This document shows, in pieces, positions 15,555 to 46,709 of a stretch of DNA of 64,000 nucleotides (the first letter of the stretch is position 1; each line of letters starts with the position of its first letter). Both the position numbers and the translations under genes were made by a program. The stretch comes from an uncultured archaeon (GTDB lineage Archaea; Micrarchaeota; Micrarchaeia; Anstonellales; Bilamarchaeaceae): positions 67,429 through 131,428 of the forward strand of contig CAVTHI010000009.1 of assembly GCA_963734525.1 (NCBI GenBank), given 5' to 3'. Below the pieces are notes generated by a model. The model saw only the letters and a list, made by a program, of their open reading frames with translations, ran no database searches and was not told the origin of the DNA.

Positions 15555-18500
15555 ATGGCGGGACCAATCGTAGGCGGACCAGATCCGACGGGGATGGGAC
15601 AGGCGAGGAATGTCGACGGAGCGGCCAAGAGGGCGGCGGATACTGCCAAAGGCATGGCTGCAGGTTTTTCAGCATGGAGGGAGGAGCGCAAAATCAAGAA
15701 GGATGAAAAGGACCTTTCCCGCAAGCAGGAGGCCCAGCGCAGGCTCGATGCGAAAGCGGAGAAGGCGAAGAAAGCCGAGGATGCCGCCGCGCCCCAAATC
15801 GACGAAAAGGCCATCCAGGGCGCCCACATGACCGAGTTCAACCGCTTCTTCCTCGACGCGGTCCGCAGGGGGCAGAGCAGGACCATCCAGGCCACCAGCG
15901 CCGACTCGATAATCCGGGAGGTCATCTGCCACGACAGCTTCATCAGGGCGATAGCCAACGTCACGGTCAGGACGCCGCTCGAGCAGATGGACACCGAATA
16001 CCAGAAGGAGATGGGCGGAAGGAGGCAGAGGCTCGCCCAGCAGCTCATGAAGGCCAAGGAGCAGAAGGAGTTCATGATCGGCGAGCTCACGGCGCACGAA
16101 CTCGACATCATTTACGCGACGATGCTCGGCACCCCAGAAGACGACGCGATAGCCAAGACGCCGGGCGCGGTGGAGATATGGCAGAACGCGCCGTGGCCGG
16201 AGAGGCTCCCGAAGCCGCCCGAAGCGTTTTTCATGTTCCTCGAAAGCATCGCGATAAGGGAGAGGCCCGAATCGAAAGGCGCGTTCATAGGCAACGTGCT
16301 CAAGAAGCTCTCGGTCGCGAGGACTTTCGTGGACACCGGCGACACGACGCTCCGCACGCTTGTGGACGGGGCGTTCATCAACGATTACCTTTACCGGACA
16401 TCGGCATACCCGATAGACACCGCGGTGGAGAGCTTCCACTCATTGACCGCGACGCTGTTCGCCACACCTACAAGCCAGATTGAGCCGGCCCTCGGCATGC
16501 CCGGCGTAGACTACGAGAAGGGCTACGCGCAGGCGCTTTCAGAGAAGCATGCCTGGGTGGAGCAGGCGAGGCAGGTCGTCGCGCAGAACCAGGTCAGCCT
16601 GGAGCAGGCGGTGGCGGCGCACGGCACCGCGGTCGCGGCGGTCGAAGCCGCGCAGAAGGAGGTCAACCGCTACTCGGACTACAAGAAGAGGACCGACAAG
16701 GGCGAGAAAATCACGCTCCGGGCGGACATCATACTTGCAAAAAACGACCCGAGGATTGCGACCGCGCTCACTGCGGCGAGAGCATTCCTAGAGGCGAAGA
16801 ACACCGAACTCGAGGCCGCGACCAAGTGGCTCGGCGCCGCACAGGCGGCCAAGGCGAAGGTAGACAAGGAGCTCTCGAGGCGCGAAGCCGAATGCGCCAA
16901 GTACCAGGCCGAGGCGAACCCGCAGGCGTTTGCGCGCGAACTGGCGTCGCACTTCAAGTCGCTCCTCGAGGAGAACCGCGACTCTAACGTGGATTTCGGG
17001 CTGGTCGCGGACAGGATTGCGCCGAGGCTCCCGAACCCGGTCATCGATTCTCTCCTTGCGAGGGCGACCGAGCTTGCCCGGGAGAGGGACGAGTTCGCCC
17101 ACGTGTTCGTCGGCAGCCAGATGGCCGATGCCGCGGCCGGCGAAGAGGGCGGAAAAGGCAAGAGCACGACGGACGTCGCGCACAGCATCATAGGCTACAG
17201 GCTCCCGCAGTTCGAGAGTAAGCTCGCTGAATTCGAGCGGGCAATTGAAACTGCCGAACTGCCGGACACCCCGGAGGCATCATCGAAGGAGCCCCTGCGC
17301 GGCATCGTCCGCGGGCTCAAGCACTTCGGCGTGCAGTCGAGCTTCATCGATGAGCAAATCGGCAAGGTGAGGAACGCGCACAGCCAGCCGCTAAGGAGGG
17401 CGGTGCAGATTTCCGTGAAATCGCTCGGCGAAAGGAGCTACAGGAACCTTGCAGGCATCACGGACCAGGAGAAAATCGCCGCGAGGATGGCCTACGAGGC
17501 GCGCACCGGCGACCTGGAAGGCAGGCCGGGCCGGACCGAGGGGAAATGGGCCAGGTTCTGGCAGAATGTCAAATACCACCTCTTCACGACTGAATCATGG
17601 GTCAGCAGGGACAGGCAGAGGCCGGGCAAGCTCGTCAAGCTCTACAGGTGGTCGATTGCCTCGGACATCGAAGGCCTGCACCCGGGCAACTGGCTGACGA
17701 GGAAGCCGGGGAGGAGGCCGGACGGCACGCCGTATAAGAATTGGACGCCGAGGGTCCTCGACAGCATCTGGGGCCTGACATGGAAGGGCTATATCGTCGG
17801 CACGCTGATTGGCGGGGCCGCGATAACGACGCAGGAGTTCCACTGGTACAACCCGCTCACGTGGGTGGGGAGGCCGGCCACTGTAGCCGCCCAGTGGGCG
17901 TTCAACGGGAGCCGCCCGATTTACCTTCCGGAGAGCCAGGACCACTGGTATTTCCCGTGGTCGTTCACCATGCCCAAGGCATCCGAGAGGCAGATGCGCC
18001 GCGTGATTGACGACAACTACGACATACCCGGAAGGCTGAGGGGCCGCGGTGTGGAGTATTACAAGCATGCATACGGCGTCGGGACGCACAGGCTCGCGAC
18101 CGAGCAGGACGATTCCGGCATGGGCCGGAGGTTGGAGTGGCTCCAGAGGCACCAGGACGTGCTGACATTCTTCCAGGAGAGGACGACCCTCAACATGGAG
18201 GTGCAGGCGAGGGTGGTCGGGGACAGGCCGGAGAACTGCTTCACGACGCGCGCGCCGAACCAGCCGAGGGAAACGATGGTGGCGCCGGTTGCGGCGCCGG
18301 CCGGAAGCCAGACGGCAGCGCCCGGAGCTGCGCCGGCTGCGCCCGCGACAGCGACCGCCGCGCCGCCCCCGCAGGCGAACGCGCCGAACAGCTGCAAGAG
18401 CGTCGGCGTCACGACCGCCGAGCTTGCGCGCGACTACCGCCCGGTGACGGACCCGAACGACGGCTACCAGCCGGGCATGAAGGTCTGCTGCACGATACAG

Positions 18501-19766
18501 GTGACAAGCAGGCGCGTGCCAGACGGGCTGAAGCTCAACACGTACATGGCCGACGCATTCGTGGACCTCCTCATGGCGGTCGAAGCCGGAGGGGGCACGG
18601 TGAACTACCCCTACCTCACGAACGCGGGCAACCGCGGCAGGTGGGCCAGGGAATGGTACCTCGTCACGCCTTCGGAAGCCGAGATAATCACCCGCTTCAG
18701 GGTCAACGAGCGCGACAACGTCCGCTTCCTGCTGATGCAGGGAGCCGAGGCGAGCTCATTGCTCCTGCCCCGCTGCTCGAGCGAAGCCGAATCGCCGGAG
18801 TTCCTGCGCGACATCAGGAGGAACGAGTTCTCGGTCCAATGGAGGACGGAGACCGCTGCCCTCATGAGCGCCGCGCAGCCCGCGCCCGTCGAAGGCCAGC
18901 CGGCACCGGGGCCCGCGGACCCGCTCACGCAGGACGCGACGCGCGAGATTCTCGAGCAGGCGTTCAATACGGTCAAGGGACGGCACCCGGACTGGTTCAT
19001 GGACAGGACGCACGCATACGAGCGCAGGCAGGCGGCGATGCAGGTCCAGGAGCTTGCAATCCAGACCGACACGGCGCTCGACGTGCTCGTCGCACAGCCG
19101 GACATACTGGAGCTTGTCCGGCAGTTCGGCTCCCGCTCTTCGTACTCGATAAACGTGGGCCGCTCGGACGAGTTCATCCAGGTGCTCGACCAGCACAAGA
19201 GGATGGGCGGAAGCCTCGACGACTACAACCCGTACTCGACGGTTCCGAATGCGGGCGTGAGGGTGCAGTATGCCATCCAGATGGGATACATCCAGAACAC
19301 CGAAACGTTCGCGGGCGCCGCGGACAGCCAGGCGAGAAGCCCGGCGACGGCAGGCCCGGCGGCTCCAGGCTCGGCAGGCGCGAGGCCCGCTGGGCCGCCG
19401 CCGATAGTCGACCTCTCGCAGAACGGGCAGAGGTTCTACACGAACCCGGCGAACGAGCCCTTCACGGGATTCTTCGAGGGCGTGATGAGGGGCGCATTCA
19501 CGAGCAGGGGCAACGACGGAAGGGTGTTCCAGGGCGTCATGGCGAGCAGGTTCGCCGGCGACCAGGCGAGGATGGAGCGCGCAATCAAGGAGGACATGTT
19601 CATTTTCCTCCAGAGGACGACGCAGGCCGACATCCTGGGAAGGGACGGCATCGACGTCACCGGAACAGGGGCGGCGATGACCGCGACCGCGCGCGACATG
19701 GCGAAGGCCCGCAACAGCATGCTCAACCACATGAGGGGGTTCGTCTCGGCACTCGGCAGGCAGTAA
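15555..19766 (+). CDS. giant protein G1 (1403 aa), unknown function
   Basis: AGGTGA lies 5 nt before the ATG. Uninterrupted 4.2-kb frame with G/C-rich third positions. Starts MAGPIVGGP, has a Lys/Glu-rich coiled segment, one weakly hydrophobic segment (17754-17850) and Pro/Ala linkers (18275-18390, 19320-19405). No domain I recognise. Confidence 0.85.
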   Translation: MAGPIVGGPDPTGMGQARNVDGAAKRAADTAKGMAAGFSAWREERKIKKDEKDLSRKQEAQRRLDAKAEKAKKAEDAAAPQIDEKAIQGAHMTEFNRFFLDAVRRGQSRTIQATSADSIIREVICHDSFIRAIANVTVRTPLEQMDTEYQKEMGGRRQRLAQQLMKAKEQKEFMIGELTAHELDIIYATMLGTPEDDAIAKTPGAVEIWQNAPWPERLPKPPEAFFMFLESIAIRERPESKGAFIGNVLKKLSVARTFVDTGDTTLRTLVDGAFINDYLYRTSAYPIDTAVESFHSLTATLFATPTSQIEPALGMPGVDYEKGYAQALSEKHAWVEQARQVVAQNQVSLEQAVAAHGTAVAAVEAAQKEVNRYSDYKKRTDKGEKITLRADIILAKNDPRIATALTAARAFLEAKNTELEAATKWLGAAQAAKAKVDKELSRREAECAKYQAEANPQAFARELASHFKSLLEENRDSNVDFGLVADRIAPRLPNPVIDSLLARATELARERDEFAHVFVGSQMADAAAGEEGGKGKSTTDVAHSIIGYRLPQFESKLAEFERAIETAELPDTPEASSKEPLRGIVRGLKHFGVQSSFIDEQIGKVRNAHSQPLRRAVQISVKSLGERSYRNLAGITDQEKIAARMAYEARTGDLEGRPGRTEGKWARFWQNVKYHLFTTESWVSRDRQRPGKLVKLYRWSIASDIEGLHPGNWLTRKPGRRPDGTPYKNWTPRVLDSIWGLTWKGYIVGTLIGGAAITTQEFHWYNPLTWVGRPATVAAQWAFNGSRPIYLPESQDHWYFPWSFTMPKASERQMRRVIDDNYDIPGRLRGRGVEYYKHAYGVGTHRLATEQDDSGMGRRLEWLQRHQDVLTFFQERTTLNMEVQARVVGDRPENCFTTRAPNQPRETMVAPVAAPAGSQTAAPGAAPAAPATATAAPPPQANAPNSCKSVGVTTAELARDYRPVTDPNDGYQPGMKVCCTIQVTSRRVPDGLKLNTYMADAFVDLLMAVEAGGGTVNYPYLTNAGNRGRWAREWYLVTPSEAEIITRFRVNERDNVRFLLMQGAEASSLLLPRCSSEAESPEFLRDIRRNEFSVQWRTETAALMSAAQPAPVEGQPAPGPADPLTQDATREILEQAFNTVKGRHPDWFMDRTHAYERRQAAMQVQELAIQTDTALDVLVAQPDILELVRQFGSRSSYSINVGRSDEFIQVLDQHKRMGGSLDDYNPYSTVPNAGVRVQYAIQMGYIQNTETFAGAADSQARSPATAGPAAPGSAGARPAGPPPIVDLSQNGQRFYTNPANEPFTGFFEGVMRGAFTSRGNDGRVFQGVMASRFAGDQARMERAIKEDMFIFLQRTTQADILGRDGIDVTGTGAAMTATARDMAKARNSMLNHMRGFVSALGRQ

Positions 19767-19938: not shown

Positions 19939-20325
19939 ATGCCCAAAAAAGCCGCGAAAACGCAGGAGGTTCCGAGGGTGGCGGGAAACGCAAGGGCGAA
20001 TCCCGGAAGCAGCGAACGGAGCGCCGTCCGCAGCCAGGCCAATCCGAAGAACGTTCCGATAAGGACTGATTCTGCCGCCCTGGAAGAGCAGACGATTTCA
20101 CGCGTCGAGCGCACGATAAGGACGCTCGGGGAATTCCTCGCGAGATGGGATTCTTCCGAGAGCAAGCCCGACAGCATGTTCCCAGAGGTAGTGAAAATCA
20201 GGAAGTTCCACGACCTCCTCAGCGAGTGGCAGAAGGATGCAGTCAGCTCGCGGGGGAAGGGCGATGAGAAGTCCAGGGTGAAGAGGCTGAGGGATTTCGT
20301 AGTTCTGTGCAAGATGTATTCATGA
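19939..20325 (+). CDS. small hypothetical protein (128 aa) leading the G2 operon
   Basis: ATG 19939 with AAGGTG 7 nt upstream (the track starts at GTG 19915). Its stop overlaps the SD of G2. Basic N-terminus (MPKKAAKTQ...), no motif recognised. Confidence 0.6.
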   Translation: MPKKAAKTQEVPRVAGNARANPGSSERSAVRSQANPKNVPIRTDSAALEEQTISRVERTIRTLGEFLARWDSSESKPDSMFPEVVKIRKFHDLLSEWQKDAVSSRGKGDEKSRVKRLRDFVVLCKMYS

Positions 20326-20335
20326 GGTGTTGACG

Positions 20336-23300
20336 ATGGGGGGCTCACAGCTTAGGACGCCGGAAGAAAGCCAGGAAACGAGAAGGATAATCATCCCGAG
20401 AAGGGCGGGGGAAGCCGAGACCGAGGAGACGAGGAGGCTTTACGACCAGGCGGTCGCAACGGTCCGCCAGCTTCAGCAGGTGTCGCGAACGATTACCCTG
20501 CCGGCAGACGTGCGGGCGGAAATCGAGAGCAGGCAGAGAATTGTCGAGTCCATGAGGAGGACCGGCGTCCCGTACCTCCAGGACAGGTACAACAACGAGC
20601 TTGACGAAATATTGTCGGTCCTCGCGCTAGCGAAGCGGGCGAGCGACGCCGGGCGAAGCGTCGACGCATTGCCGCTCCTCGAGCGGGGGACGGCCATGAT
20701 GCAGTACCTCGGGAGGCTGTACGCCGGGGAAGTAGGGTTCATGATTAACGGCGTGCCGCCGAACCTTCGGGCCGGCACGCAGACGCACAACGACCTGCTC
20801 GACTCTGTCGAGGTCGTGATTCTCGATGTCGGCACGGCGAATGCCGCGCGCTCCGACAGGGTGCTGAGGGCATTCAACCTTTACGTGCAGAACGAGACCG
20901 CATACAACACCGACGACGTCGCAATCCGCGGGGAGAGGGATGCGCTCGTCGAGTTCATACTCGACAACGGAGTCAGGGCGGGGGCGGACAAGGCTGCGCG
21001 CGAGCGCAATCCTTATACCGCGGAGCAGGCCGCGCGCGACGAGACGAGGCTGCAGAGGTTCGAGGCGAACATCGCCCGCATCAGCGCCATGCTCAGGCAG
21101 GATAACGTGCAGAGGGTCACGGCATGGAAGGATGACATCACCGGGCGCATGACGCAGCTCTCTGCGGAGGACGCGTCGCGGGGCCTGATGGAATCGCTCC
21201 GCCAGGACATGGACGCGCTCCTTGCCAGGCTCGGGAACGAACGGACCGCACGCGAGGTGCGGGACGAGGACATGCTCACGCTCGAGAACAGGTATCTCAT
21301 GCTCACAGGAAGGCCGCCGGTGCCGACGCGCGAGGCCCGCGACGAGCAGCTCCAGCTGAGCGCGGCCGAACTCCGCGGCTCCGGCACGAGGAGCGACCGC
21401 AGCGCGGCGCGCGAAGGGACGCAGGAATGGTTCGGCGCGCAGGCGCTCGCATTGATCACCGGCGGGAACAGGGAAATCGCAGCGCTTGCGGTAGCGATGG
21501 GGTTCCTTGAAAGGACCGCTTCCGGCTCGACCGGGGGGGCGAGGGCCATCCTCGGGGACGATAGGTACAACGCGATTGTGGCGGTGATTTCCCAGCGCGG
21601 GGATTTGAGCCCGGTACGGGCCAGCCAGTTCGCTACCGAAATCGAGGTCGCCACACTCAGCGCTGACGCGGCGAGGCTCGAGAGGGGCTACCGCATACGC
21701 GGGCGCGGGACGGCCAGGGAAAGGCTCACGAGAATCAACGAGGCGGCAAGAGCCGCCAGGGAACGCATCGACGCCGGGGACATAGCCGGGGCGAGGAGGC
21801 TCCTGGACATGACATCCAGGTATGCAATGTACCTTGATGGCGCCCGGGGAAGGGACTGGGCGGCGTCCGGAGAGATGGAATCCGCATTGGACATGGAAAT
21901 CCGCGGCCAGAACGGCCAGCAGGCGTTCGAGGACGCAATCACACGCAACCAGTTCGCGGCGCAGATAACCGACTTCAGGTCCAGCCTCTCGCAATGGGGC
22001 AGGGGCATCGCAGACCAGAAGAGGGTCGTCGACAGCGGGCTCACGCACGTCGAAGAATTGATTGCGCAGGGCAATTTCAGGGAGGCCCAGGGTGCGCTCC
22101 TTCGGCTCATCATGTATGCGGACTCGGTGGACAAGCTGGGCATCCGCAGGGGCGGGAAAATCGAATCCATGAACCCGCGCTTCGACGGCACCGGCATGGA
22201 GAGGGCGCTCGGGGCGTTCGCCCGCGGGCAGACGCAGATTGACGGAAGGGGCGTCGAAACCGTATTCAATGAAAGCTACGTGGCGGCGCAGAGGGCCGCG
22301 GTGGATGCCGAAGCGGCGAGGCTGGGGGATCTGGCCACGCGCAACCGCTGGACAATCGGGCGGGAAACCGTCGACCTCGCATTGCAGGGCGCAAGGGCGA
22401 GGGCGCAGCAGGGGGATTACGAGGGCGCATTCAGGCTGCTAAGATACGTGCAGGAATTCTACGGCGCTCCGACCGCGGCGAGGGCCGCTTCGGGAGGCCT
22501 GCCGGCCCAGGCCGCAAGGTCCGAGGGCTGGAGGTACAGGCTGGCCGCGCGAGATGGCGCGGGATTCGTGGAAGGCCGCAACAGGTTGATTGACGCGATG
22601 CGGATGGAAGCCGAGGCCACGACGCCCGAGAGGCAGCGCGCGGCAGCGCAGCTTTTCCAGCTCGGCACGCAACGCATAGCGGAGTGCGACATGCTCATGG
22701 CGAGCGCAGCGCAGCTGCGCCAGAGATATGACGGCACCATCGCATTCATCGACGGGAATGCGCAGACCGTGGGAAGGGTCGTCATCGGATACGATGCGCA
22801 GAACAACCCGCTTTACCTGGACCTAGCCCGCATCCGGGAATATGAAAGCACGCATTCGCGCGACCCTGCGCTCGGGACGGGCATGGGGCTCACGGCGCTT
22901 TTCAGGCAGCTCCAGACCGCCGCCAACAACGGCGACATAAGCGGATACAACAGGATTGTAGAGGCGATATTCGGAAGGTACGATTCGCGCACGGGCACGA
23001 CGGTCGGCGGAAGGTTCTGGCTGGTCGCCCAGCGCGCCGCGAGGATGCAGGCCATCGACAGCGTCGTCACCCAGCTCGGCGGCCTTTCAGGCTTCACCGG
23101 CAGCCTCCCGCCATACGACGGGAGCGTCGAGCGCAGGAGGACGCTCGAGACCTCGAGGACAGCGTTGATCACGCGCCTCGAGGCCGCAAGATACACTAAC
23201 GAGGACATCACCGCGAGGGTGGGCGAAACTCCGTCCATCATGGACACCTACGCCCAGCTTCTTAGCAACGTGGACCGCGAACGGAGGACCTCGCTCGCGA

Positions 23301-26300
23301 TTTCAGTGATAACGGAGCAGGCTTCGCTCAGCGACCAGTTCAGGGTGGCAGTTGGATATCCGGGCGGGGAAATCACCACAACGACGCGCAGGCAACTGGA
23401 CGAAAGCAGGCGCTGGCTGGCGGAAGCCAAGACGGCGGCATTGGAAGGCAGGTTCGAGGATTCCGCAACGGCATACGACCGGGCCATCGAAGCGAGGATT
23501 GACGCGATGCAGACGTATTGGGCGAGGTCGGTCACGACCTTGACCGACGCGATGTCCGTCCACCGCGCAAGCCACCTGGACAGGCCTGACGAGAGGTTCT
23601 TCCCGGTGCTCCGCATGCAGCATGACGAATTGGAGGTCGCCCCGTACCGCGAAGCGCACCGGACGGTCTACCGCGACCTGCTTTTCGGCAACGTTTCCGG
23701 CGAGACCGCGCGTGCGCACGGCGAGCGCATGCAGAGGAGGATACAGGGCACGGTGATGATTGAATCGTCGGTGTTCGGCATACCCGCCGGTTCCACGGCA
23801 CAGCAGATTCTCAGCGATTTCAAGAGGGACCAGGCCAGCGTGCGCCAGTCGGTCTATGCTGGGTGGAGGGCCGAGGACCAGGCGATGAGGACCGCGGACC
23901 CGGGCGAGCGCCAGTACCAGATGGCCCGCGCCACGCGCGAATATGACGAAGCACGCTCGACCATACAAGCGATGCAGCTCCAGGCCGAGCGCGCGAGGAT
24001 GGTGGCGCAGGTCGCTGTCCTCGGGCTGGCTATCGCAACATTGTTCATCCCGGTCGTGGGCATATACATCTCGGGCGCGATATTCATCGGCTCGCAGGTC
24101 GAAGGGATGGTCACCGAGTACAGGATGAACGGAACGGTATCCACCGAATCGTGGGTCATGTTCGGAGTCACTGTCGCGACGCTCGGCTTCGCGGCGGTAG
24201 GCGGCGTCATCCGTACGGTCGCGATCGGGGCGCGCGTGAGCGCCGAGAGCCTTGCGCTCGCAGGCAACCTGGCCAGGGCCGAGCAGATGATGGCTTCGGC
24301 AAGCAGGTACGCCATGGCGAGCCGCGCATTCACGGGCACGGCCCTCGGCCTCGGCATCGGCATGTCCGGATACATGGAGTTCAGCGCATACCGCATGTAC
24401 CAGGAGTCGCAGAGGACGAACGACCCGGTGAGGAAGGAAGCGCTTTTGCACCAGGCCATGCTCACCGCGGGCATGGGACTGTTCCCGCTGCTCCACATGG
24501 GAGTGGCGTACGGATACAGGGGCATGACCGCCCCGCCCCGCATGAGGGCGGCGGCCGCCCTCGAGGAGATAACTCCTGCAAGGGAGCTCGTACCTGGAGA
24601 GGCCGCAGAGGCGCCCCTTGCGAGCAGGCTCAGGACTGCGGACGGATTATTCGAATTCATGGGAAAGTTGAGAAGCACGGAGGCGAGCGTGCGCGCGGCC
24701 GCAGAGGCCGAGCTGGCGACGATTCCGAATGCCGCGATGAGGACGGGCGTCGCAAGGCTCGCCAGCGATGCGAGAATCGGCAACGCCACATACCTGAACC
24801 TGCTGCGTTCCCTGCAGAGCGGGGAGCTGACGCCGTACGGAAGGGCCGAGCTCGAAGGCGCGCTTGGAAGGCTCACGCCCGAGCTTCCGCCCGAAGGCGG
24901 ACCTGGCGGAGGGCCGCGCGGAGGCGGGCCGAGGACGACGAGACCGGAAGTGGATGCCGCGGGATTGTCGGAGTCGGGGGGGCTTTTCGGATTCCTCCAG
25001 GACCTGCTGGTGCCTAACGGCGCGCCGGCGCCTGCCTTGAATGCGAGGGCCGCCGCGAGGGCGACGCTTGCAAGGCTGAGGCTGGACCCGAGGACGACTC
25101 CGGTAGCGGACGCAATCGACAATATCGTAGGGAACCCTGAGCGCGGGATAGCCGGCAATCCGGCCATCCGCGCAGCAATCGAAGGCGAACGCGCGGCGAA
25201 TCCGTCGGCTCAGCCGCCGGCATTCGCAGACATCGACCCGTTCACATCAAGAGGCTTGAGCAATGCAGCGCGCGGCATCGCACGCAACGTGAGGGAGCCG
25301 GTCCGCGAGGCGGCGGTTCTCGAAGCGACGACCGGCCTGCCGATTGAAGATGCGGTGGGACAGCCCGTGCCGCTGCGCCCAGGCCAGGCCGAAGGCGTCG
25401 GAACCGCAGTTCCGGTCCGCGCCATGGCCGGCGAAGGGCCTACAGGCGGAGGCAGGGGAACCGGAGGCGGGGAGCCCGTCCCGGGAAGAGCCGGGCCTGC
25501 TGAGATAGGCGGACCTGCCAGAGGCGGCAGGGGAACCGGAGGCGGCGCGAGGCCGCCAAGGGGAGCCGCCCCGCGTGGGCCTGCCGAAGGAGAAGCGCCC
25601 GCGCAGGCAGGAGGCCAGCAAATCAACATCACAGTCCAGCCGCCGGCTCCGCAACCAGGCAGGGTTGTCCGGGCAGGCAGGTGGATAGGAGGGCGAGTAG
25701 CAGGCGGATACCGCGCCGCCGGAAGATGGGCCCGCGGGGAAGCTGCGCTCGAGAACGTCCCGGTGCTCGAAGCCGAGACGGACGCGATGATTGCGCAGAG
25801 GATTGACGCGACTGTCGCACAGAGCCCGCAGAACGTCGTCGCCATGATGAGGATGATTTACGACCGCGCTATGAGCCCGCAGACGAGGGTGGCCACGCGC
25901 GCCCAGTGCATGGAGATACTCGAGGGGCTATACCGCCACCCCGAGGTCCAGCGGCTAATCGCTGCCGCGGCAGACTCGAGGCCGGCCACCGCGGCAAATC
26001 CGAGAGCAGTTGCATATGACCCGAAGATTGCCGAGATGCAGGGCAACATAGTGCGCGGCATCGACACGAACGTGCAGGTGCAGGGTGTCACTGGCAGGAC
26101 CCCGGATATTAGAAGGCAGGCATACCTGGATTCGCTTCCCGAACTGACGCAGGTCCAGCGCGGCATCATGGTGGATGCGCTCGAAGCGCAAGGCGCCGCG
26201 CAGGGATTGCCGCCGCTTGCGGCAACGGCCGAGGTGCTCGGCCTCGAGCTCAACGCCGCCCAGAGGGCGAACGCGCTGCTGCGCCTCGTGGAGACCGGCA

Positions 26301-29345: not shown

Positions 29346-29349
29346 CGCG

Positions 29350-37578: not shown

Positions 37579-37632
37579 AAGGCAGCGGACCGCCCTTCCC
37601 GCGCAATCCTGAAGCGCAAACAGGATTTCCCG

Positions 37633-37916: not shown

Positions 37917-40900
37917 ATGGCCGGTCCGAGGTTGAAGCACGGGGAGGAAAAGGAGGTGCCAGAAGGCGCGCCGTCCGAACGCCGCAGCAGGCCGAATTCG
38001 GCAGCCTTTTCACGGCCAGGGTGGCGCGATTGGCCACCGCGACGCTTGCCGGAATTATGACGTTGGAAGGCATAACTAATTTAAATATCCTTAGTCCTAA
38101 TGTTGCCATGGCACAACCGAGGCGGAAGGGGGGCGCGGAACCAGAAGAGATCACAAGGCTCCAGGCACAGGCCGTGGATGCCGCAAATGCTTTTCGGGAT
38201 TATATCGTAGGAGGGGACCCGGCCAGGAGGCAGTTTTTCTGGACCACCTACAACCAGGCGTTCGGCGGTGCCACGCTGCACGACAACTCCACGTTCATGA
38301 CGAAGCTCTTCGAGGAGCTCGACCGCATCGGCAGGGACCCAGGGGTCCAGCCGTTGCTCGCCGCATTCACGGCGGACCGGGGAAGCCTCTTCGGCTTCCT
38401 CTGGAGCAATCCGGTGCATTTCACGGATTTCATCGATACCACTTACAACATCAGGCAGAGGCTCGAAGGGGGCACGGCGAGGCCCGCGGACATAACGAGG
38501 CTCTCCCGGCAGGTCCGCGAATCGCAGGGCAGGCCGGCCAGGGCGGACACCCAGGTCGGGCGCGTCCGCGCGGCGATGGAGGCCAACACGAGCCTCACCG
38601 TAGAAGACGCGGTGAGGGCGGAGCTGGAGAGGCCGAGCCGCGAGGAGGCGACGGCGAGATACGGCGACAACCTGACGCGCGAAGTGATTGCGCGCTCCCC
38701 AGGGCAGTTGGCAATCAGGGCGGCTGTCGCACTGCGCGACTTCATACTCACTGGGGACGAATCCAAGCGCACGCTTTTCCGCAGCATCTGGGACGCGAAC
38801 ACCACCCAGGCGTTCACCGACGCGTTCACAGCGGAATTCACGGCGAGGATTTACCGCGACAGCGGCTCGGGCCTCGCGGCGATTGCGCAGGCTTACAACA
38901 CCAGGCACAGCGGGACCGACCCGATAGCGTTCGCCACAATGATTACGCAGCTCTATGCGGCGGCGGGCTCGCGCACAGACACCACGCGCGAAATAGAGCA
39001 GATGCGCACGGCCGAAGGCACGAACGTCGTGGACCCGCTCCTGGCAATAGTGGCAAGGGGCATGGCGGGCAGGGCGATAACGCTCATGCGCGACGTGCTC
39101 GAGAACGGGACTCCGGCGTCACGGGACCAGTTCGTCGCTATATTGAACGGCAGGCTGGCGGTCATTGCGAACAACGCGGTCCAGATGCCGAACGTCGAGA
39201 ACAACGACGTGTTCTGGAACGAGTTCACGCGGCTTTACACCGCGGAAATCGGGCAGAGCAGCCGCCTTGCGACGCTGGTGCGGAGCTTCCAGAGGAATAT
39301 ACTCCCGATTGCAATCAGGGACATCTACACGGAGCTTGCGAGGGCGAGCCCGGACACTGCGAGGCTGAATGCGGATTACGGGCCTGACCTTGTGGGGCTC
39401 ATCGCGTCCAACACAGGCACGCTTTCGTGGATGGCGCGCCCGGATTCGGACTTGTCCTCGGAAATCACGAGGAGGTCGCGGGCGGAGGACCCGGCCGCGG
39501 TCCGCGTAAGCGGCGTCCGCCTGGCTCAGGGCGTTTCCAGGCCGGCGGCGCTTAGGGAGACTTATATCGCGCTCGTGCAGGAAAGGGCGGTCACGCGCAC
39601 GGTCGAGGCGCCGGACGTGACGGCCATACTCGAGCGGAATTTCGATTCGCTTTCATACCTTGCCGGAACGCCGGCCCAGGTCCAGAGGGAGATTGAGCGG
39701 AGGGCGAGGGCCAGGCCGCCGGATGCGGTTGCACAGCAGCTGCTCGCGCGCTTCCCCACAAACGCCGGAGCATCGCTCTCGGCCGCGTACACCGCGCTCC
39801 GCGACGCGCGGACGCGCAGGGCTGCGCTCGTAACGCAATACGGCCAGGAATTCGTGGACATCGTGGCGGCGAACCTCGACGGACTCCAGTGGGTCATGAG
39901 GCCCGTGGAAGAGATAGACAGCCAGATGCGCTCCAGGCGCGACGACGCGTTCGTCCGCTCGGTCAACACCAGGATAGGATATTCGGTCGGCACGCTCGCG
40001 CATGGCCTCCGCGACATCTATACCGAGTTCGGCCGGCCTACGCCGGACCGCGCAAGGCTGGACCAGACTTACGGCTCTGAACTCGTGACGCTCGTGGCGA
40101 CCAACCGCGCGAGCCTCGGATGGCTCGGAAGCGACCTCGCCACGGTGGAGAGGACGCTCCAGGACCCGAGCACGGACGCAACCACGCGCTCGCTGCAGCT
40201 CAAGCTTTACAGTTATACGCCGGTCCAGCTCGTTTCCGCAATCGCCCGCGCAAGAAGCGCAATCACCAGGCGCGGGCTCGCCCTTGCGGATGCGACAGAC
40301 GCATACGGCACGGTCTTCGTAGGCCCGGTCGTTTCGCGCCAGGCGGTCGTCACCCCGTCAATCTCGCCAGAGGTTGCGCAGCCCCTCCAGCAGGTGCTCG
40401 AATCCCGCGCGCTCGGCATAGTGCGGCAGTTCGAGGAAATCGACAGGCAGCTCCGCTGGCCCATCCTCGAGCCGGCGCGCGTGCTCATCCAGGAGCGCAT
40501 CAGGCTCTGGAGGCAGGAGAACGACGCAATCAGGCTGGAGGCCAGGCAGACGCAGGACCCGACCGCGCTTGCGGCGCTCGAAACACGGCAGGCGACGCTC
40601 ATCAACTCCATGCTCACGCCCGCAGAAATGCGCCGCTCGGTCGAAATGGCGTTCGCCATGGTGCACCTTGCGGAGACAGGCGGCGATATGAGCCGCGCGC
40701 CCAGCCTCAGCGACGTCACGACGACGGACCAGGACATCGGGACATTGAGGAGGCTCTCGGAGTGGTACCGCGGGCTGAGCACGACGGGGAAGCAGCCGGT
40801 GGTGGGCGAGGTCGTCTCGTCCGTGCTTTACCGCGCCGACCCGAACCTGTACCAGTTCATAACCGGGCTGTCCGAACCCGGATTCGTCAGCGCGATCTCG

Positions 40901-42661
40901 CGCGTATATTCGCTCACAAGGAGAATCGGCGGGGACAACAGGCAGACGCTGGTCGCCCTTTACGGCGAGCAGTTCGTGGCGCTCGTGGAATCGCAGGCGC
41001 CGCACCTGCGCATCCTTGAAAGCCCTTCGGTGATGGCGAACCCCGCGGCGACGATGGCAAGCCTCAGGCGTGGCGAGAACGAGCTTTACGCGAGCATAGT
41101 CGTCCGCGTCTACAGGGCCGTGTCGAGCCCGGCCGCAGGCGAGGACAGGGCGAGGATGGAGAGCCTCTTCGGGCCCGAGTTCGTGGCCGCAGTCGTGGCG
41201 AACCAGGCGCAGATGACAGCACTCGGAACGGGCACGGCAGGCCTTCCGGAGGTCCAGGCGCTCCCCGAATCCGTCAGGCGCGCACTCGCGGCCGCGTATC
41301 CGGCGGCTTACCAGAGAAGCATCGGGGCACTTGTCCGCGGATTCCGCAACCAGGAGGACTGGATGTTCAGGAGCATGTCCGCGGTGTACGCGGCCCTGCG
41401 CGAAAGGCCGGCCCGCGGGGCTTCGGCTGATGCGACGCAGGCGTACGCACAGCGCGTCAGGGAGCTGAATGCCGCATACGGCGACAGCTTCGTCGCTACT
41501 ATAAGCGAGAACATGGCGCAGTTCGAGTTCCTCCAGCGCCCGACTTCTTCGCCGAGGGACCTGGCCAACATCCCCCCCGAGCTCCGCGAACGGCTCAACA
41601 CCACTTTCGAAGGCGGGCCTGCGGTGGGCAGGGCGAGCTTCATGACGAACTTCCTGCGCGTATACGAGCAGCTGCCGAGGGTGTACACCCAGCTGCGCGG
41701 GGCGCTCGCGTTCTCGAACCCGACGGACACGCTGCCGACGACGCTCGCGAACGCCATCGCCTATTACCGCCAGCAGTTCGGAAGCAACAACTACCTCTTC
41801 AACCAGTACATCAACCTGGACCTCCTCAGCAGGAACATCCAGCGCATCGCACGCAGGTACAACGTCCAGCTTCCGCCGAACATCGCGGACGGCATCGATT
41901 CGCCGGAGGAGCTCTCGCAGTTCATCAGCACCGAAACCGGGAGGAGCCTGCTTGCGGCGGGAAGGACGTTCTATAACGATACCCTGCTCCCGCTGTACCA
42001 GCAGCAGAAGGTCGGACAACAACTTCCACCCGACGACCGGCGATTACACCGACGCGAACGTGACGAACCTGGTGAACCAGCTTTCCATCCTCGACGCGCT
42101 CTACCTCGGCGTGGCGCTCGAAAGCGTTTCGGGAACCGACAGCGCGTTCCAGCGGTCGGCCGCGACGGCGACCATGAACGCGATTCTCGTCATCTCGAAC
42201 CGCGACCCGTACCTCGTAGGGCCGTTCCTCCTCCAGGTGCTCCCGGCTATCCTGTCATGCTCGCAGGACGAGCGGACCATCGTCGCCGCGATAGAGGCGT
42301 TCAACGGGATATTCACCCAGAGGTACGAGACGGGAACGAGGGAAATCGCATACAGCAACGCCCTCAACCGCAGGTATTTCCTCGAGGTGTTCCAGCGCAT
42401 CGGCGACAGGCTCCCCGAGGTCACGAGCTCCTACGACCACAGCAGGCTCGAGGACGAGCTGCGCCTCACCCCGGAGCCCAGGACCGACGAGGGATACATG
42501 AGCCCGCTGCTCTACCGCTACAGGCCGGGCTTCTGGCAGGGCGACGGCCTCGAGGCGCTTCCGACGATGTACGGCCAGCAGGGCTCGCCGATACGCCTGC
42601 TTCCGAGGCCCACGATGCCGACAAGCCCGTTCCTGCCGGTTCCGGGAGGATTCACGATTGA
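37917..42661 (+). CDS. giant protein G5, N-terminal part (start ATG 37917; frame change near 37960-37980; credible to about 42013)
   Basis: AAGGAAGGA lies 8 nt before ATG 37917, which opens MAGPRLKHGEEKEV..., parallel to G4 MSGPRLKWN. That frame stops at 38058-38060. The tracked 37688 frame then reads RRAVRTPQQAEFGSLFTARVARLATATLAGIMTLEGITN..., homologous to G4. After LYQQQKV (about 42013) the tracked frame becomes Arg/Pro junk. Confidence 0.8.
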
Positions 42662-45600
42662 TTCGGGCGCGAGCGACATATTCAGCAGCATGTACGACCA
42701 GCTTCGGCCGCCGGTGGAAAGGATGTTCCGCCAGCGCGTGCCTGCCAGGTTCAGGATAGGCGCGCTCGGCGCATCGACGATTATACGCAGGATAAACCAG
42801 CTCTTCGGCCCGATGCCGGTCGATTACAACGATTACTGGCTTAGCGCCTTCGGCGAAGCCGGGGCATACTACGCGCACCAGGAGAGGGGGCCGACCTCGA
42901 CGAACAGGGGCGGCCTTGCAGGCGTCGGCGGAGGCCGCACGATCAGCGGCGGCGAAAGGGCGACCGCCAGGTGGACGCGCGACCAGACCGAAACCGCGAT
43001 TCCGGCCGGCGAAGGCCAGGCGCGGAGCGCCACGTCCACGACTTCGGATACCGTGGACATCAACGCATCGGCAGTCAGGCTGCCGCCCCCATTGTCGGGA
43101 CCGGTGCCGCTTCCGCTCCTGGGCGTCGTGCCGTACGACCTGTTCAGGATGGGCGAGGGAACCGGCTCGGCATACGTGGCGAGGCCGCAGTCCGAAGTCC
43201 AATCCGAGCTCGAGCGCAGGCGCGGAACCGGGGACCAGGTCGTCGCGAACATATTCACGCTCAGGCCGAACAACACCGCGGCGGCCCTTCTCGACACGTA
43301 CACCGAACTGCTCAAGACCGCGCCGGACCGCACTAGGCTGGAGCGGGATTACGGAAGGCCGTTCGTCGAGCTCGTCGCTGGCAACAGGCAGTACCTCAAC
43401 TGGGTCCTGTCGCAGTCACCCGAGATGGGCGTCGGAATACACCGCGCGAGGCAGGAATTCCATTACGAGAACTCGAGCACGACGCAGACCACCGCGCCGC
43501 CGGCAGGGCAGGCCGGGGACACTACGGTCACGGACACGCAGACGAGGGGCAGGACGAGGGGGCTCCTCGAGACCTACCAGAGGATTGCGCGCCAGTCCCA
43601 GACGGACATGCTCCTTTTCGTCGCGGGCGAGCACGTGCCCGAGCTTTCGTCGGCAGGCGGTGCAACATCCCAGCGCGGGGAGGACAGGCTCAAGACGAGG
43701 CTGTACTTCGTCACGCGCGAAGGCGACGTCTACCAGCTCGCATACGGCCTCGACACGAGGGCCCAGCTCCTCAACTACCTTTATGCCGGGGCGAACACCC
43801 AGCAGTTCCTCGCATCGGCGAGGGCTGTCGGGCGGCAGATGCTGACGGGCGACTCGGCGGCGGCCGGTTTCGACGGCGCGGCGGTGGGGTTCACCCTTCC
43901 GCGCTCGGGCGGGGATTCGTTCTCGTCCCTTGCGTTCGGCCAGCTTGTGCGCAGCATGAGGTACATGGACCCGGTCCACGCCGAGCAGGCCGCGGGCATG
44001 GCTGTCACCAGCCTCCTTGCGGACCGGAGGCAGAGGGACGTATATGCGGCGTTCTACCGCGGGGCGGAGATGATAACCGTCGACCAGCAGGACCGCCAGC
44101 ACATAACCGACACCAGGTTCGCTGAAGGGACCGGCGAGGTCATGTGGAGGCGCATGCGCATCGACCCCATGGCCTACCAGGCCGAGATAAGGGCGGCCGG
44201 CGGATACCCGGCGACCGTGGCGGCAAGGGGCCGCCTCGAATGGCGCCCCTCAAGATACCAGACCAACGCGCTCGGCGTCACGGCGGCCTACTCTCATATC
44301 GACCTGCTGCGCGAGATGAGGGCCGCGGGCGCGGATGCCAACGAAATTTACGGCGGATTGCAGACCGTCCTTACGAGCCTTTACGGCTGGTCCGAGGACA
44401 CGGCGAGGGACACCGGATGGCTCGCCGCGGGGAGCTACATGTACGCGCGCATGGAGAACTACACGATGCAGAATCCGGACGGCACCTACCGGACGCTGCC
44501 TTCGGGCCCGGAGGGGAACCCGGAGCAGCATTACGCGAGTGCCATGTTCATGTACTGGGCCCAGCGCCACGGCATACTCATGGGCGCGCAGAGGGTGCCG
44601 GGATGGACGAGGATATACGACAGGATAGACCAGGCCATGAGGCAGATACAGCAGAACCCGGCCAACGAGGCGACGATACTCGAAGGGCTTTCGCGCGCGC
44701 TGCGCGATGATTTGCGCAGGGACATCTGGCGCTTCGCCCTCGCATACGGGTATGACGGCGAGCGCGTCAGGATATACACCGTCGGAGGCGGCCAGTACGT
44801 CAACGATGAAACCGCATACGGGAACCTGTACAGCATGTTCATCTTCGGCAGGCCTGCGGCGGGATACGTGGACATCCTCGGCCACGCTTACGGGTATTCG
44901 CCCCTCGTCATCAGCGAGAACCCGGGCACGGCGGGGCAGTTCACCGTGACGCGCGGCAGGCAGACGCCGTTCGTCGACCTGTACACGGGGTTCGGCATCA
45001 TGGACTGGCCGAGCATCAGCCTGCAGAGGTACCAGAGGGAAGTGGCGATAACGAGCGCGCCGAACATCGCAGGGGCGGTGCGCGACGCCTACCGCGAACT
45101 CGGCGGCATGAGGAACAGGACGCGCCTCGTCCGCGACTACGGCGAATCCCTGGTCGCGCTGGTCGAGGAAGGCCGCGAGACGCTCAGCTGGATGATAAGG
45201 CCGGCCGCGCAGGTCCGAACCGAGATGCAGACGCGCCTCGGCCAGGACGACCCGATAGTGCTGTCGTTCCTCAACCTGCGCTCAGGACGGGAGAGCGGGG
45301 CGACGACGGTCAGCGCAGAGGACGCGGCCGCGCTCGTGGACATATTCACCGAGCTCCGGAAGGCCACGCCGAACCGCGAACGGCTCGAAACGAGGTATTC
45401 CCGCGAGCTCGTGGACCTTGTCGAGAGGAACAGCACGGACCTCGACTGGATGCTCCTCCCGGCAGACCGCATGAGAAGCGAATTCACGCGGAGGGCGCAG
45501 GCGAGAGGCTCGGTCGAAGCGAGGATGGCCGAGGTGTCATTGCCGGCCCCGCCCACCCAGGCGTCGCTAACAGGGCCCGAGGTCAAGACGCTCATGGAGC

Positions 45601-46709
45601 AGAACATGCTCGACGTGCTTGTCGGCGCAACAGGCGCGGATTCGCGCGTGGGCCTGAGCCCGGAGCGCTACGACATCCTGCTCGGAAGCCACCTCGGCAG
45701 CCCGGCAGGGAGGAGGGACAGGGCGACGACGTTCTACGTACTGCACACGCCGGTCTCGGAGCGCTCGGAGGCGAGGGGCTCGCTGGTCATCGGCGACCAG
45801 CAGGACCTCGACGAGTGGATGCGCCACGGCCACCAGATAGGGCGCGGCATTTCCCGCCTCGAAGTCGCGAGAACCGGAAGCGATTATACCTTCACGTTCT
45901 CGGGCGACAGGAGGCTTAGGGCGCTTACGGCCGAACGGTTCGTGGGAGGGATTACCGTCCCGCTCCGCGAATCCGAATTCAGGGTCGGAAGCAGCTGGAC
46001 GGTCGGCGGGCTGATGCAGGTCCTCCAGGACCACAGGCTCGACCTCCTCGCAGGCGCCATGTACGGAAGGCGCGAATACGGGAACGAGCGCTGGGACCAG
46101 TGGACCGTCACCGTTTCGGGCAGGCTGCAGGGCACGAACACCGCGACCGTCAGCGAGCAGTGGTACGGATACCTGTTCTTCAACCAGGCCACCAGGCAGG
46201 TGGTCGCCGCGAGCGGGGATGTGTTCAACAACGCCGAGGAGATGAGGCAGGTGTGCCAGACCCTCGGCGGGGCCGGGTGCAACAGCCTCTCGGACCTTTC
46301 GAGGACCACGGGCGGCGTCGGCCTCCAGTGGGCGCGGACGGACGTCGTCACGGGCGACCGGATGAGCTTCCACTTCTTCTTCGAAGGCGGCGTGGAGACC
46401 TACCGGCCGTGGAGCGGCGCGGGCTCAGGCACCGTGGACACGGGCGGGGGCAACACCGCCGCGGTGACAATCAACCCGCGCGACAACGCGTTCGTATTCC
46501 GCACCGGCGTAGGGTTCAACTACACCCAGCAGAGCCCCAACAGCACGATACCGAACATCTACTCGCTCACCTTGGGCGCGCAGAACGGCTCGTGGCCCCT
46601 CATACCCGGGGACGTCACGAGGCCGGAATACCTGCAGTCCTGGGGCACGTCGATGGAAACGGCCATACCGGGCTGGTCGCTCATGCTGCACGGCCGCGTG
46701 CAGTGGTAG
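41952..46709 (+). CDS. giant protein G5, C-terminal part (credible from about 42013; whole G5 about 2930 aa)
   Basis: From DNNFHPTTGDYTDANVTNLVNQLSILDAL... the composition is protein-like. Contains further ~50-aa repeats (43296-, 45087-, 45342-) and a beta-rich Gly/aromatic C-terminus ending ...GWSLMLHGRVQW. Changing GG to G at about 42011-42016 would fuse it to the previous frame. Confidence 0.8.
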   Translation: MRREGRSITIPCSRCTSSRRSDNNFHPTTGDYTDANVTNLVNQLSILDALYLGVALESVSGTDSAFQRSAATATMNAILVISNRDPYLVGPFLLQVLPAILSCSQDERTIVAAIEAFNGIFTQRYETGTREIAYSNALNRRYFLEVFQRIGDRLPEVTSSYDHSRLEDELRLTPEPRTDEGYMSPLLYRYRPGFWQGDGLEALPTMYGQQGSPIRLLPRPTMPTSPFLPVPGGFTIDSGASDIFSSMYDQLRPPVERMFRQRVPARFRIGALGASTIIRRINQLFGPMPVDYNDYWLSAFGEAGAYYAHQERGPTSTNRGGLAGVGGGRTISGGERATARWTRDQTETAIPAGEGQARSATSTTSDTVDINASAVRLPPPLSGPVPLPLLGVVPYDLFRMGEGTGSAYVARPQSEVQSELERRRGTGDQVVANIFTLRPNNTAAALLDTYTELLKTAPDRTRLERDYGRPFVELVAGNRQYLNWVLSQSPEMGVGIHRARQEFHYENSSTTQTTAPPAGQAGDTTVTDTQTRGRTRGLLETYQRIARQSQTDMLLFVAGEHVPELSSAGGATSQRGEDRLKTRLYFVTREGDVYQLAYGLDTRAQLLNYLYAGANTQQFLASARAVGRQMLTGDSAAAGFDGAAVGFTLPRSGGDSFSSLAFGQLVRSMRYMDPVHAEQAAGMAVTSLLADRRQRDVYAAFYRGAEMITVDQQDRQHITDTRFAEGTGEVMWRRMRIDPMAYQAEIRAAGGYPATVAARGRLEWRPSRYQTNALGVTAAYSHIDLLREMRAAGADANEIYGGLQTVLTSLYGWSEDTARDTGWLAAGSYMYARMENYTMQNPDGTYRTLPSGPEGNPEQHYASAMFMYWAQRHGILMGAQRVPGWTRIYDRIDQAMRQIQQNPANEATILEGLSRALRDDLRRDIWRFALAYGYDGERVRIYTVGGGQYVNDETAYGNLYSMFIFGRPAAGYVDILGHAYGYSPLVISENPGTAGQFTVTRGRQTPFVDLYTGFGIMDWPSISLQRYQREVAITSAPNIAGAVRDAYRELGGMRNRTRLVRDYGESLVALVEEGRETLSWMIRPAAQVRTEMQTRLGQDDPIVLSFLNLRSGRESGATTVSAEDAAALVDIFTELRKATPNRERLETRYSRELVDLVERNSTDLDWMLLPADRMRSEFTRRAQARGSVEARMAEVSLPAPPTQASLTGPEVKTLMEQNMLDVLVGATGADSRVGLSPERYDILLGSHLGSPAGRRDRATTFYVLHTPVSERSEARGSLVIGDQQDLDEWMRHGHQIGRGISRLEVARTGSDYTFTFSGDRRLRALTAERFVGGITVPLRESEFRVGSSWTVGGLMQVLQDHRLDLLAGAMYGRREYGNERWDQWTVTVSGRLQGTNTATVSEQWYGYLFFNQATRQVVAASGDVFNNAEEMRQVCQTLGGAGCNSLSDLSRTTGGVGLQWARTDVVTGDRMSFHFFFEGGVETYRPWSGAGSGTVDTGGGNTAAVTINPRDNAFVFRTGVGFNYTQQSPNSTIPNIYSLTLGAQNGSWPLIPGDVTRPEYLQSWGTSMETAIPGWSLMLHGRVQW

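Follow-up and report, generated by a model that had tools for sequence, protein, structure and literature searches.

A conserved cluster of giant, lysine-poor genes in Micrarchaeota as a candidate cell-envelope or host-contact apparatus

Here we describe a block of giant genes at positions 15555-46709 of the forward strand of a 64,000-nt stretch of archaeal DNA (contig CAVTHI010000009.1; the whole stretch is called the window below), and on balance we favour the view that this block builds a very large cell-envelope or host-contact apparatus. Long co-directional open reading frames (ORFs) occupy the block, about half of the window, as the original prediction had noted from the letters alone. 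Five giant genes (G1 to G5) are accompanied by three small ones (s1, s3 and s3'). The cluster recurs in the same order beside the same housekeeping genes in distant Micrarchaeota, the products of G2 to G5 are almost free of lysine, and the C-terminus of G4 is confidently predicted to fold into a porin-like beta-barrel. The relatives of the FtsY protein encoded next to G1, drawn from GTDB species representatives (n = 30), came from metagenome-assembled genomes (MAGs) of Micrarchaeota in 29 cases and from a Woesearchaeota MAG in the remaining one, and the window is therefore from a DPANN archaeon. Micrarchaeota in culture live as episymbionts whose envelopes are in intimate contact with their hosts (PMC8975820; bioRxiv 10.1101/2024.05.20.594898). 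For the means by which DPANN archaea attach to a host and draw material from it, no conserved molecular machinery is known from Micrarchaeota so far. The cluster takes up about 31 kb of a genome that, judging by relatives, is probably only about 1.3 Mb (PMC8561730); this large share, together with a chromosomal position shared by lineages whose guanine-plus-cytosine (GC) contents are 30 points apart, makes it a concrete and testable candidate.

A native giant-gene cluster between ftsY and trm56

Of the 29 Micrarchaeota loci, 24 have a G1 homologue as the next gene after ftsY, in most cases with s1 and G2 behind it; of the other five contigs, three stop just past ftsY. The recurrent order is ftsY-G1-s1-G2-G3-G4(-G5)-s3'-trm56-PGM-prs, in relatives of 31-64% GC. 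Four lineages show it in full, one of them Ca. Bilamarchaeum dharawalense (40% GC), in which ftsY, G1 and s1 are followed by G2 (3189 aa), G3 (717 aa, with the GDSL domain), a G4-like gene (1656 aa), a small minus-strand gene, trm56, a phosphohexomutase gene and prs. Locus L037 has two G4/G5-type genes, like the window, while L038 and a contig from ENA hold shorter versions in unchanged order. Piece by piece, the same order can be followed through the close relatives L032, L035 and L001. Among these, L032 (a Logan assembly) is the closest relative that covers the G2 region, with a G1 73% identical to that of the window, and L035 is an 87%-identical relative (G3 87% identical). G3 orthologues come after G2 in L032, L035, L036 and L037, s1 always lies between G1 and G2, and a small minus-strand gene occupies the s3' position in every relative examined. 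A search for syntenic homologues in other genomes, which the original prediction had proposed as a check, thus found them in Micrarchaeota genomes and MAGs.

We compared the composition of the block with that of its flanks. The block is 4-8 points higher in GC. Third codon positions have a GC of 0.79-0.87 in the block and 0.75-0.87 in the flanks. Block and flanks also agree in relative synonymous codon usage (RSCU), with a correlation of r = 0.93, in line with the native codon style read earlier from the sequence. The excess lies in codon position 2 only and therefore reflects amino-acid composition: GC at that position is raised because lysine is replaced by arginine, and alanine and glycine are also frequent. 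The block is a chromosomally native, old and vertically inherited cluster of Micrarchaeota; the original prediction had called it native rather than recently acquired, for which codon usage speaks and, more strongly, the shared gene order and flanks in distant Micrarchaeota.

Given the higher GC of the block and a predicted barrel fold that is otherwise bacterial, we considered that the block might be a mobile element, a provirus or a lateral island, for example captured bacterial autotransporter-like genes; toxin-antitoxin genes between cluster genes in L033 would also suit such an origin. However, this explanation is highly improbable and largely refuted by the codon-position and RSCU results and by the identical ftsY-trm56 position in distant lineages. 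We scanned Pfam, NCBIfam, PHROGs and PADLOC and ran profile searches against PDB. The Pfam, PHROGs and PADLOC scans of the block found no integrase, capsid, terminase or defence gene, and sequence similarity to bacterial families was seen neither in Pfam searches with the 21 members of the G4 family nor in the PDB profiles. In the viral structure library BFVD, the best Foldseek matches of the G4 barrel are annotated as porins or autotransporter beta-domains, and none reached E <= 0.001.

The toxin-antitoxin-type genes of L033 (a DUF3368 gene with a ribbon-helix-helix partner, and a HicB-like antitoxin gene) lie at 9131-9842 and 14562-14813, in the gaps that separate G1 from ftsY and from s1, and leave the order of the giant genes undisturbed. 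Metagenomic contigs from several relatives (L001, at position 1, L002, L010 and L026) stop at the block or just inside it, right after ftsY or right before G4; this region may resist assembly or differ within populations. In some lineages a short gene of 319-431 aa, without a GDSL match on record, occupies the place of G3 (L038, at 8965-9924, and the ENA contig of P0022), and in L038 and L023 G2 shrinks to 1661-1822 aa. Hence the cluster does not always include the esterase, nor a large share of G2.

Lysine is nearly absent from G2 to G5

G2, G3, G4 and G5 contain 0.3-0.5% lysine and 8-12% arginine, against 8-11% lysine in neighbouring proteins. Lysine makes up 9.4% of FtsY, 9.6% of s1, 11.2% of s3 and 4.3% of G1. 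The G2 orthologues of L024, L017, L014 and L022 hold only 0.1-0.3% lysine in genomes whose ftsY has 33-46% GC and whose FtsY has 13-16% lysine, and the loss of lysine is therefore not a product of GC drift. Proteins of thousands of residues that remain nearly lysine-free even in AT-rich genomes show selection against a single amino acid with unusual clarity. A haloarchaeal origin, which the acidic and lysine-poor G4 might have suggested, was rejected, because G2, G3 and G5 do not share this acidity and the codon usage is that of a native block.

The nearest described phenomenon is that of lysine deserts: selection has strongly depleted lysine while arginine is kept, much as in G2 to G5, and the depletion is read as avoidance of lysine-directed degradation tagging (PMC10665810). 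In contrast to such deserts, the depletion here extends over whole archaeal proteins of 800-3000 residues that are apparently exported. The A chains of AB toxins are likewise lysine-poor with arginine retained. Lysine avoidance in the exported parts of the giants may be a selected trait that shields long-lived exposed proteins from lysine-directed tagging or chemistry.

Export-type N-termini of G4 and G5 and the predicted C-terminal barrel of G4

G4 (32180..37096, forward strand) is an intact ORF of 1638 aa with 0.5% lysine and a net charge of -112. It consists of an N-terminal basic and hydrophobic segment, a long region in which no domain was recognised, and the predicted beta-barrel at the C-terminus. 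The protein is rare: a word-indexed search found only three close homologues of G4 among 5.8 billion proteins, and when all 1.84 billion cluster representatives were scanned by HMMER, the C-terminal 660 aa matched 20 proteins, 17 of them 1000-2180 aa long. Two of these matches carry an organism name, and both are Micrarchaeota. At the N-terminus of G4, of G5 and of most full-length family members, a polar stretch and basic residues precede a hydrophobic segment of 13-20 residues, and a conserved N-I...(A)MAQP motif follows 12-25 residues past this segment in the G4 family. Judged by its sequence, the N-terminal segment of G4 and G5 is a predicted signal peptide or signal anchor. The first residues of G4, MSGPRLKWN, look like an extended signal peptide region as found in type V proteins, a likeness that we take to be coincidence; the candidate was rejected, since the motif is not conserved in the family and Pfam is silent on it.

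We modelled the last 262 residues of G4 (36308..37093) with AlphaFold2 from 17 sequences. The model was confident (predicted local distance difference test, pLDDT, 91.2; predicted TM-score, pTM, 0.80) and showed 14 consecutive antiparallel strands. Foldseek searches of PDB returned four matches at E <= 0.001, all to PopA of Bdellovibrio (E 1e-4), and membrane beta-barrels made up 48 of the 50 matches listed, with FecA, CymA, TamA, EspP, OmpG and BrkA following PopA. The dyad amphipathicity of the strands is 1.72, compared with 0.94 +/- 0.19 in shuffled sequences, a value reached by 0 of 1000 shuffles. Moreover, 17 of the 21 family members end in F, W or Y after alternating hydrophobic residues (for example ...LTLTFNLGGTF and ...VNVNLTAGVQW), so that by its sequence the family C-terminus shows the beta-signal of bacterial outer-membrane proteins; the window G4 itself ends in ...NLRLLNM and G5 in ...LMLHGRVQW. 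The barrel is presumably closed, with its apolar face turned towards lipid. To our knowledge, porin-like beta-barrels are considered to occur only in diderm bacteria and in the organelles that descend from them. A confidently predicted barrel of this kind with a bacterial-type C-terminal signal in an archaeon would be of interest beyond the field, and both the barrel and the lysine findings are open to follow-up in Micrarchaeota co-cultures, if the strains carry the cluster.

G5 (37917..46709, forward strand) is about 2930 aa long when reconstructed across two frame breaks and has 0.3-0.4% lysine. Its N-terminal modules are paralogous to the G4 family (hmmsearch with the family profile, E 2.5e-45). 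A repeat region at 39287..45530, delimited by regular expression and self-BLAST, holds at least 10 copies of a unit of about 75 aa, ..Y.EL....PDR.RL...YG..FV.LV..N...L.WM..P, which is present in no other block protein and matches no Pfam family. The beta-rich C-terminal sequence and the terminal W suggest that G5 probably ends in a barrel as well.

G1, G2, G3 and the small lysine-rich proteins

G1 (15555..19766, forward strand) is an intact ORF of 1403 aa. Residues 1-740 carry 6.8% lysine and coiled-coil-like stretches, and a single transmembrane segment is predicted at about residues 745-767 (17787..17855, LTWKGYIVGTLIGGAAIT and adjacent residues). The same alignment columns are hydrophobic in 13 orthologues, and the segment lies under a strict Kyte-Doolittle threshold of 1.5 in the window copy. 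Lysine falls to 1.4% after the predicted segment, and the asymmetry between the two parts is seen in most orthologues. Four cysteines (C895, C947, C978 and C979) are invariant in the alignment of 13 sequences, and all lie past the hydrophobic segment. A word-indexed homologue search with G1 returned eight proteins, and a profile of the 13 sequences gave the same eight.

G2 (20336..29496, forward strand) is about 3050 aa long when reconstructed across two single-base indels and contains 0.5% lysine. A hydrophobic cluster of two to three helices lies in its middle (residues about 1227-1300, 24014..24236), with a helix pair whose Kyte-Doolittle peaks are 2.41 and 2.06, and the cluster is found at the same position in L032 and Ca. 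Bilamarchaeum dharawalense. Its C-terminal module (29040..29496) is homologous to the C-terminus of G1: tblastn with the C-terminal part of G2 matched the C-termini of G1 orthologues in L007, L005 and L014 at E 5e-6 to 1.5e-5, and both share the pattern ...G-x-T-V-T-G-x-G...M-x-V...D...A-R...F, written ...GITVTGTG / MRVTVDMARARD...IRQF in G2 and ...GIDVTGTGAAMTATARDMAKAR...MRGF in G1. In the N-terminal half of G2 (20336-25480), the family consensus shows repeated helix-hairpin-like motifs, G-D/N-x-x-x-A-x-x-L-L-x-x-x-x-x-Y, such as GDxAGARRLLDM, QGNxxEAxRVLTLLVMY and GDYxGAxxLLxYV, which match no repeat family.

G3 (29512..32016, forward strand) is an intact ORF of 834 aa with 0.4% lysine. Its residues 425-600 (30784..31311) matched PF13472 at E 3.2e-18 (67.3 bits against a gathering cutoff of 32.9) and SGNH hydrolases in PDB at E 9e-11, and the motifs GDS, GGIN (GGxN) and DGLHP are intact in the translation. 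By sequence, G3 is assigned to the SGNH/GDSL hydrolases, an assignment that covers this domain only. An SGNH hydrolase had been read earlier as the sole recognisable enzyme signature of the block, and this held: Pfam, NCBIfam, PHROGs and PADLOC found nothing but the SGNH/GDSL domain of G3. In PHROGs, only this domain of G3 matched, to a lipase family and weakly to a tail-fibre family (E 0.0048 over 21 residues); no other protein of the block did.

The small genes s1 (19939..20325) and s3 (37150..37578), both on the forward strand, encode small lysine-rich proteins, that of s1 being basic, and s3' (46865..47311, reverse strand, 148 aa), between G5 and trm56, is a lysine-rich paralogue of s3. 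Longer ORFs open upstream of the chosen starts (GTG 19915 for s1 and GTG 37093 for s3); ATG 19939 agrees with the starts of s1 orthologues, and ATG 37150 with the s3 start in L001. The C-terminal 90 or so residues of s1 are the most conserved part of the cluster, with 42-83% identity in an alignment of 18 sequences. The small proteins had been thought SecB-like, for which we found no sequence support: s1 has no Pfam match and no match to SecB in PDB, where its best match is the ribosomal protein bL35m (E 0.052), and s3 has no PDB profile match, nor do five s3-family members have a Pfam match at E <= 10, with nothing for s3 in either database even at that level. Three or four small ORFs had been predicted; the small genes number three, with s3' outside the block as first delimited.

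Several of these features would suit an intracellular apparatus, a giant cytoskeletal or membrane-shaping scaffold tethered to the inner face of the membrane by its hydrophobic segments. No N-terminal signal is present in G1, G2 or G3, the PDB profile matches of G1 are weak and of coiled-coil type only, the G2 consensus holds the helix-hairpin-like repeats described above, and a hairpin in G2 would put both halves of the protein on one side of the membrane. Set against this are the export-type N-termini of G4 and G5, the porin-like barrel and the clustering of the invariant G1 cysteines past the transmembrane segment; in addition, lysine-rich small partners beside lysine-free giants suggest different compartments. 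We consider an intracellular scaffold quite unlikely. The G1 transmembrane segment, the G2 hydrophobic hairpin, the N-termini of G4 and G5 and the predicted G4 barrel instead back the membrane- or envelope-associated assembly that had been proposed from the letters. The original prediction had brought out neither the DPANN affiliation of the organism nor the lysine scarcity of G2 to G5, the beta-barrel with its C-terminal aromatic residue, the G5 repeat or the C-terminal module common to G1 and G2.

Comparison with known systems

Family alignments of G1, s1, s3, the G4 barrel and the first 1700 aa of G2 were run as profiles against PDB and brought up no meaningful match, and the 21 G4-family members contain no credible Pfam domain. 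Profile searches had been named as a check on the block, and no strong match of most of its length to described families emerged from them. In the literature, we found no description of the cluster and nothing that joins Micrarchaeota and beta-barrels. The cluster appears to be new in kind, with a function proposed from composition, topology and one predicted domain.

The predicted layout of G4, and probably that of G5, is similar to that of type Va autotransporters, which have an N-terminal export segment, a very long passenger and a C-terminal barrel ending in an aromatic residue; the beta-domains of EspP and BrkA are among the Foldseek matches of the G4 barrel. However, type Va proteins carry a PF03797 barrel of 12 strands, whereas 14 strands are predicted for G4, and G4, G5 and their family have no Pfam match. 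Furthermore, no beta-helix family or repeat was recognised in the passenger, and the motif after the hydrophobic segment of the G4 family lies at a distance atypical for a signal-peptidase site. Type Va autotransporters, like other type V secretion proteins, belong to diderm bacteria, where the beta-barrel assembly machinery (BAM) and TAM assemble them in the outer membrane; neither an outer membrane nor BAM is known for the archaeal organism of the block.

The best structural match of the G4 barrel is PopA of Bdellovibrio bacteriovorus (PDB 9ga1/9gf0; E 1e-4, probability 1.00), a porin-like, lipid-trapping outer-membrane protein of a bacterial predator (PMC12228718). Its bearer, too, lives on another cell, and according to reports cited in that paper PopA inserts into the prey membrane. 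The two differ in that identity is 11-12%, with TMq 0.43, and PopA is a stand-alone pentamer of about 330 aa from a diderm bacterium.

Very large proteins of reduced-genome DPANN symbionts also include the SPEARE and other giant surface proteins of Nanohaloarchaeota, proposed to act in host attachment or invasion (PMC6642349; PMC10266531). SPEARE proteins have recognisable protease, adhesion and restriction-endonuclease domains, while Pfam and NCBIfam found no serine protease, adhesion or restriction-endonuclease domain in G1-G5; no sequence relationship was found, the block is multi-gene and syntenic, and the likeness is limited to scale and lifestyle. In Apilactobacillus kunkeei, a Gram-positive bacterial symbiont, Giant1-5 are five consecutive genes for very large extracellular proteins that take up several percent of a genome of about 1.5 Mb (PMC12863079); as described, their likeness to the block is one of genome architecture only. 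The Micrarchaeota surface-layer (S-layer) protein SLP_Mh is described as a 101-kDa protein with an N-terminal S-layer domain (bioRxiv 10.1101/2021.04.28.441871), a kind of domain that neither Pfam nor NCBIfam recognised in G1-G5.

A proposed apparatus at the symbiont surface

We propose the following arrangement for a very large envelope or host-contact apparatus. G1 would be a bitopic membrane protein, with its N-terminal half in the cytoplasm and its cysteine-bearing, lysine-poor half facing outward. G2 may be held by, or insert through, its central hydrophobic hairpin, and the C-terminal module that it has in common with G1 could serve in docking. G3, an active-looking SGNH esterase that is probably co-translated with G2, may act on O-acetyl groups of glycans or on an ester lipid. 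G4 and G5 would be exported or anchored by their basic and hydrophobic N-terminal segments, followed by a long passenger and by a barrel at the end of G4 and probably of G5. The barrel could insert into a second lipid layer, most plausibly the membrane of the host cell, and G4 and G5 might then act as tethers or conduits between symbiont and host, while s1, s3 and s3' may be cytoplasmic chaperones or adaptors for the adjacent giants. Cultured Micrarchaeota have one membrane and an S-layer (bioRxiv 10.1101/2021.04.28.441871; 10.1101/2024.05.20.594898) and live attached to host archaea (PMC8975820), which makes the host membrane the most attractive target for the barrel. A more specific version seems unlikely to us: that the N-termini of G4 and G5 sit in the symbiont membrane and their barrels in the membrane of the host archaeon, forming with G1-G3 a bridge or pore for the transfer of lipids or metabolites, and that the loss of lysine evades host tagging by the SAMP/Urm1-proteasome system.

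Several observations weigh against an envelope or host-contact apparatus. The confident structure is limited to one domain, 262 of about 10,000 residues; the 660 C-terminal residues of G4 were modelled from three sequences with low confidence (pLDDT 30), and Foldseek gave moderate TM-scores: the four PopA matches have a TMq of 0.43, and the highest value in the matches listed is 0.54. No relation between the G5 C-terminus and the G4 barrel profile was found by hhalign. The block encodes no secretion ATPase or barrel-insertion factor, and G1, G2 and G3 start without an export signal. Lysine depletion of G2 is milder (3-7% lysine) in L011, L012, L015, L021, L023, L025 and L006, with Bilamarchaeum among the milder lineages, and the lysine asymmetry of G1 is reversed in L011, L012 and L015. 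Cryo-electron tomography of two cultured Micrarchaeota showed an S-layer and not a second membrane (bioRxiv 10.1101/2021.04.28.441871; 10.1101/2024.05.20.594898). Finally, in the co-culture of strain ARM-1 the intercellular nanotubes come from the host (bioRxiv 10.1101/2024.05.20.594898), which argues against a simple picture of a symbiont needle.

The giants could also be structural parts of the symbiont's own envelope, such as an outer sheath, an S-layer anchor or an outer-membrane-like layer, with the G4 and G5 barrels in a second lipid layer of the symbiont itself and no direct role in host contact. Such parts would call for the same membrane and export features, conservation beside housekeeping genes across lineages fits a core structural function, and two membranes in Micrarchaeota are reported to have been hypothesised in earlier work (bioRxiv 10.1101/2021.04.28.441871). 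However, tomography and biochemistry of Ca. Micrarchaeum harzensis and ARM-1 assign the outer layer to the S-layer (bioRxiv 10.1101/2021.04.28.441871; 10.1101/2024.05.20.594898), and Pfam and NCBIfam found no S-layer domain in G1-G5. The fast divergence and copy-number change of G4 and G5 also fit a changing partner better than a static wall. We regard a purely structural role as a rather improbable account of the block.

Reading frames and transcription units

Five giant ORFs had been predicted for the block. G1, G3 and G4 are indeed intact in the window, while G2 and G5 are broken in frame. In the window, G2 spans three frames (20336-~28498, ~28498-29342 and 29343-29496). The G2 of L032 is a single intact ORF of 3048 aa, 65% identical, that aligns across all three, and the G2 region of L035 is likewise unbroken. 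A small ORF at 29350 had been taken for a gene of its own; because the intact G2 of L032 and of L035 covers frame 29350-29496, this frame represents the last 48 codons of G2. G5 also spans three frames, starting at ATG 37917 (MAGPRLKH...) and shifting near 37986 and between 41975 and 42035, while its orthologues in L035 and L001 are continuous, with an intact length of at least 2779 aa.

Base-by-base alignment with L035 was feasible for three of the four breaks, each of which is a single-base indel. A neighbouring gene for a multi-PAS/GAF sensor histidine kinase (3755-8299, reverse strand) is broken at three places and lies in four frames (8299-7616, 7602-7243, 7316-5316 and 5314-3755), while in L004 its orthologue is a single intact ORF that spans 1256 aa or more, and in L032 a single one of 1086 aa or more. 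The window thus holds seven breaks in 64 kb, in unrelated genes, which therefore point to assembly or sequencing indels and not to biology; such indels are the most likely source of the breaks in G2, G5 and the kinase gene. Programmed frameshifting was rejected, as the alignable breaks are single-base indels missing in the 87%-identical L035 and an unrelated neighbouring gene is similarly broken. The kinase breaks also suggest that the whole contig has indel errors.

The four breaks in G2 and G5, and the many long shadow ORFs that high-GC DNA yields, could be taken to mean that the giants are decaying pseudogenes or non-genes whose long frames are a by-product of high GC. This is very unlikely. 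Intact orthologues of the giants are present in L032, L035, L001, L036, L037 and L038, G1, G3 and G4 are unbroken in the window itself, and the similar breaks in the kinase gene point to assembly indels. Moreover, across genomes of 31-64% GC the proteins stay conserved at identities as low as 25-30%, and some Cys, Trp and Gly columns do not vary at all; this conservation refutes the non-gene explanation.

The Shine-Dalgarno-like motifs, tiny gaps and oligo-T tracts that had been reported for the block were all found. G3 starts 15 nt past the G2 stop, s1 lies 10 nt upstream of G2, and oligo-T tracts are present after G1, G3, s3 and G5. Together, these signals and the close packing of the genes are consistent with four transcription units: G1, s1-G2-G3, G4-s3 and G5. 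A spacer of about 340 nt before G5 is conserved among relatives (37579-37916 in the window, 5585-5990 in L001 and 16573-16921 in L035). Within it lie oligo-T tracts and, about 140 nt ahead of the start codon, a TATA-like CTCTTTATAT box; the box and the spacer length imply a separate promoter and a long leader for G5. A start of the form M-A/S-G is common to G1, G4 and G5 (15555, 32180 and 37917 in the window) and several orthologues (P0012, P0018 and L031 11211), in the variants MAGPIVGG, MSGPRLKW, MAGPRLKH, MAGSRL, MAGTRI and MAGERV.

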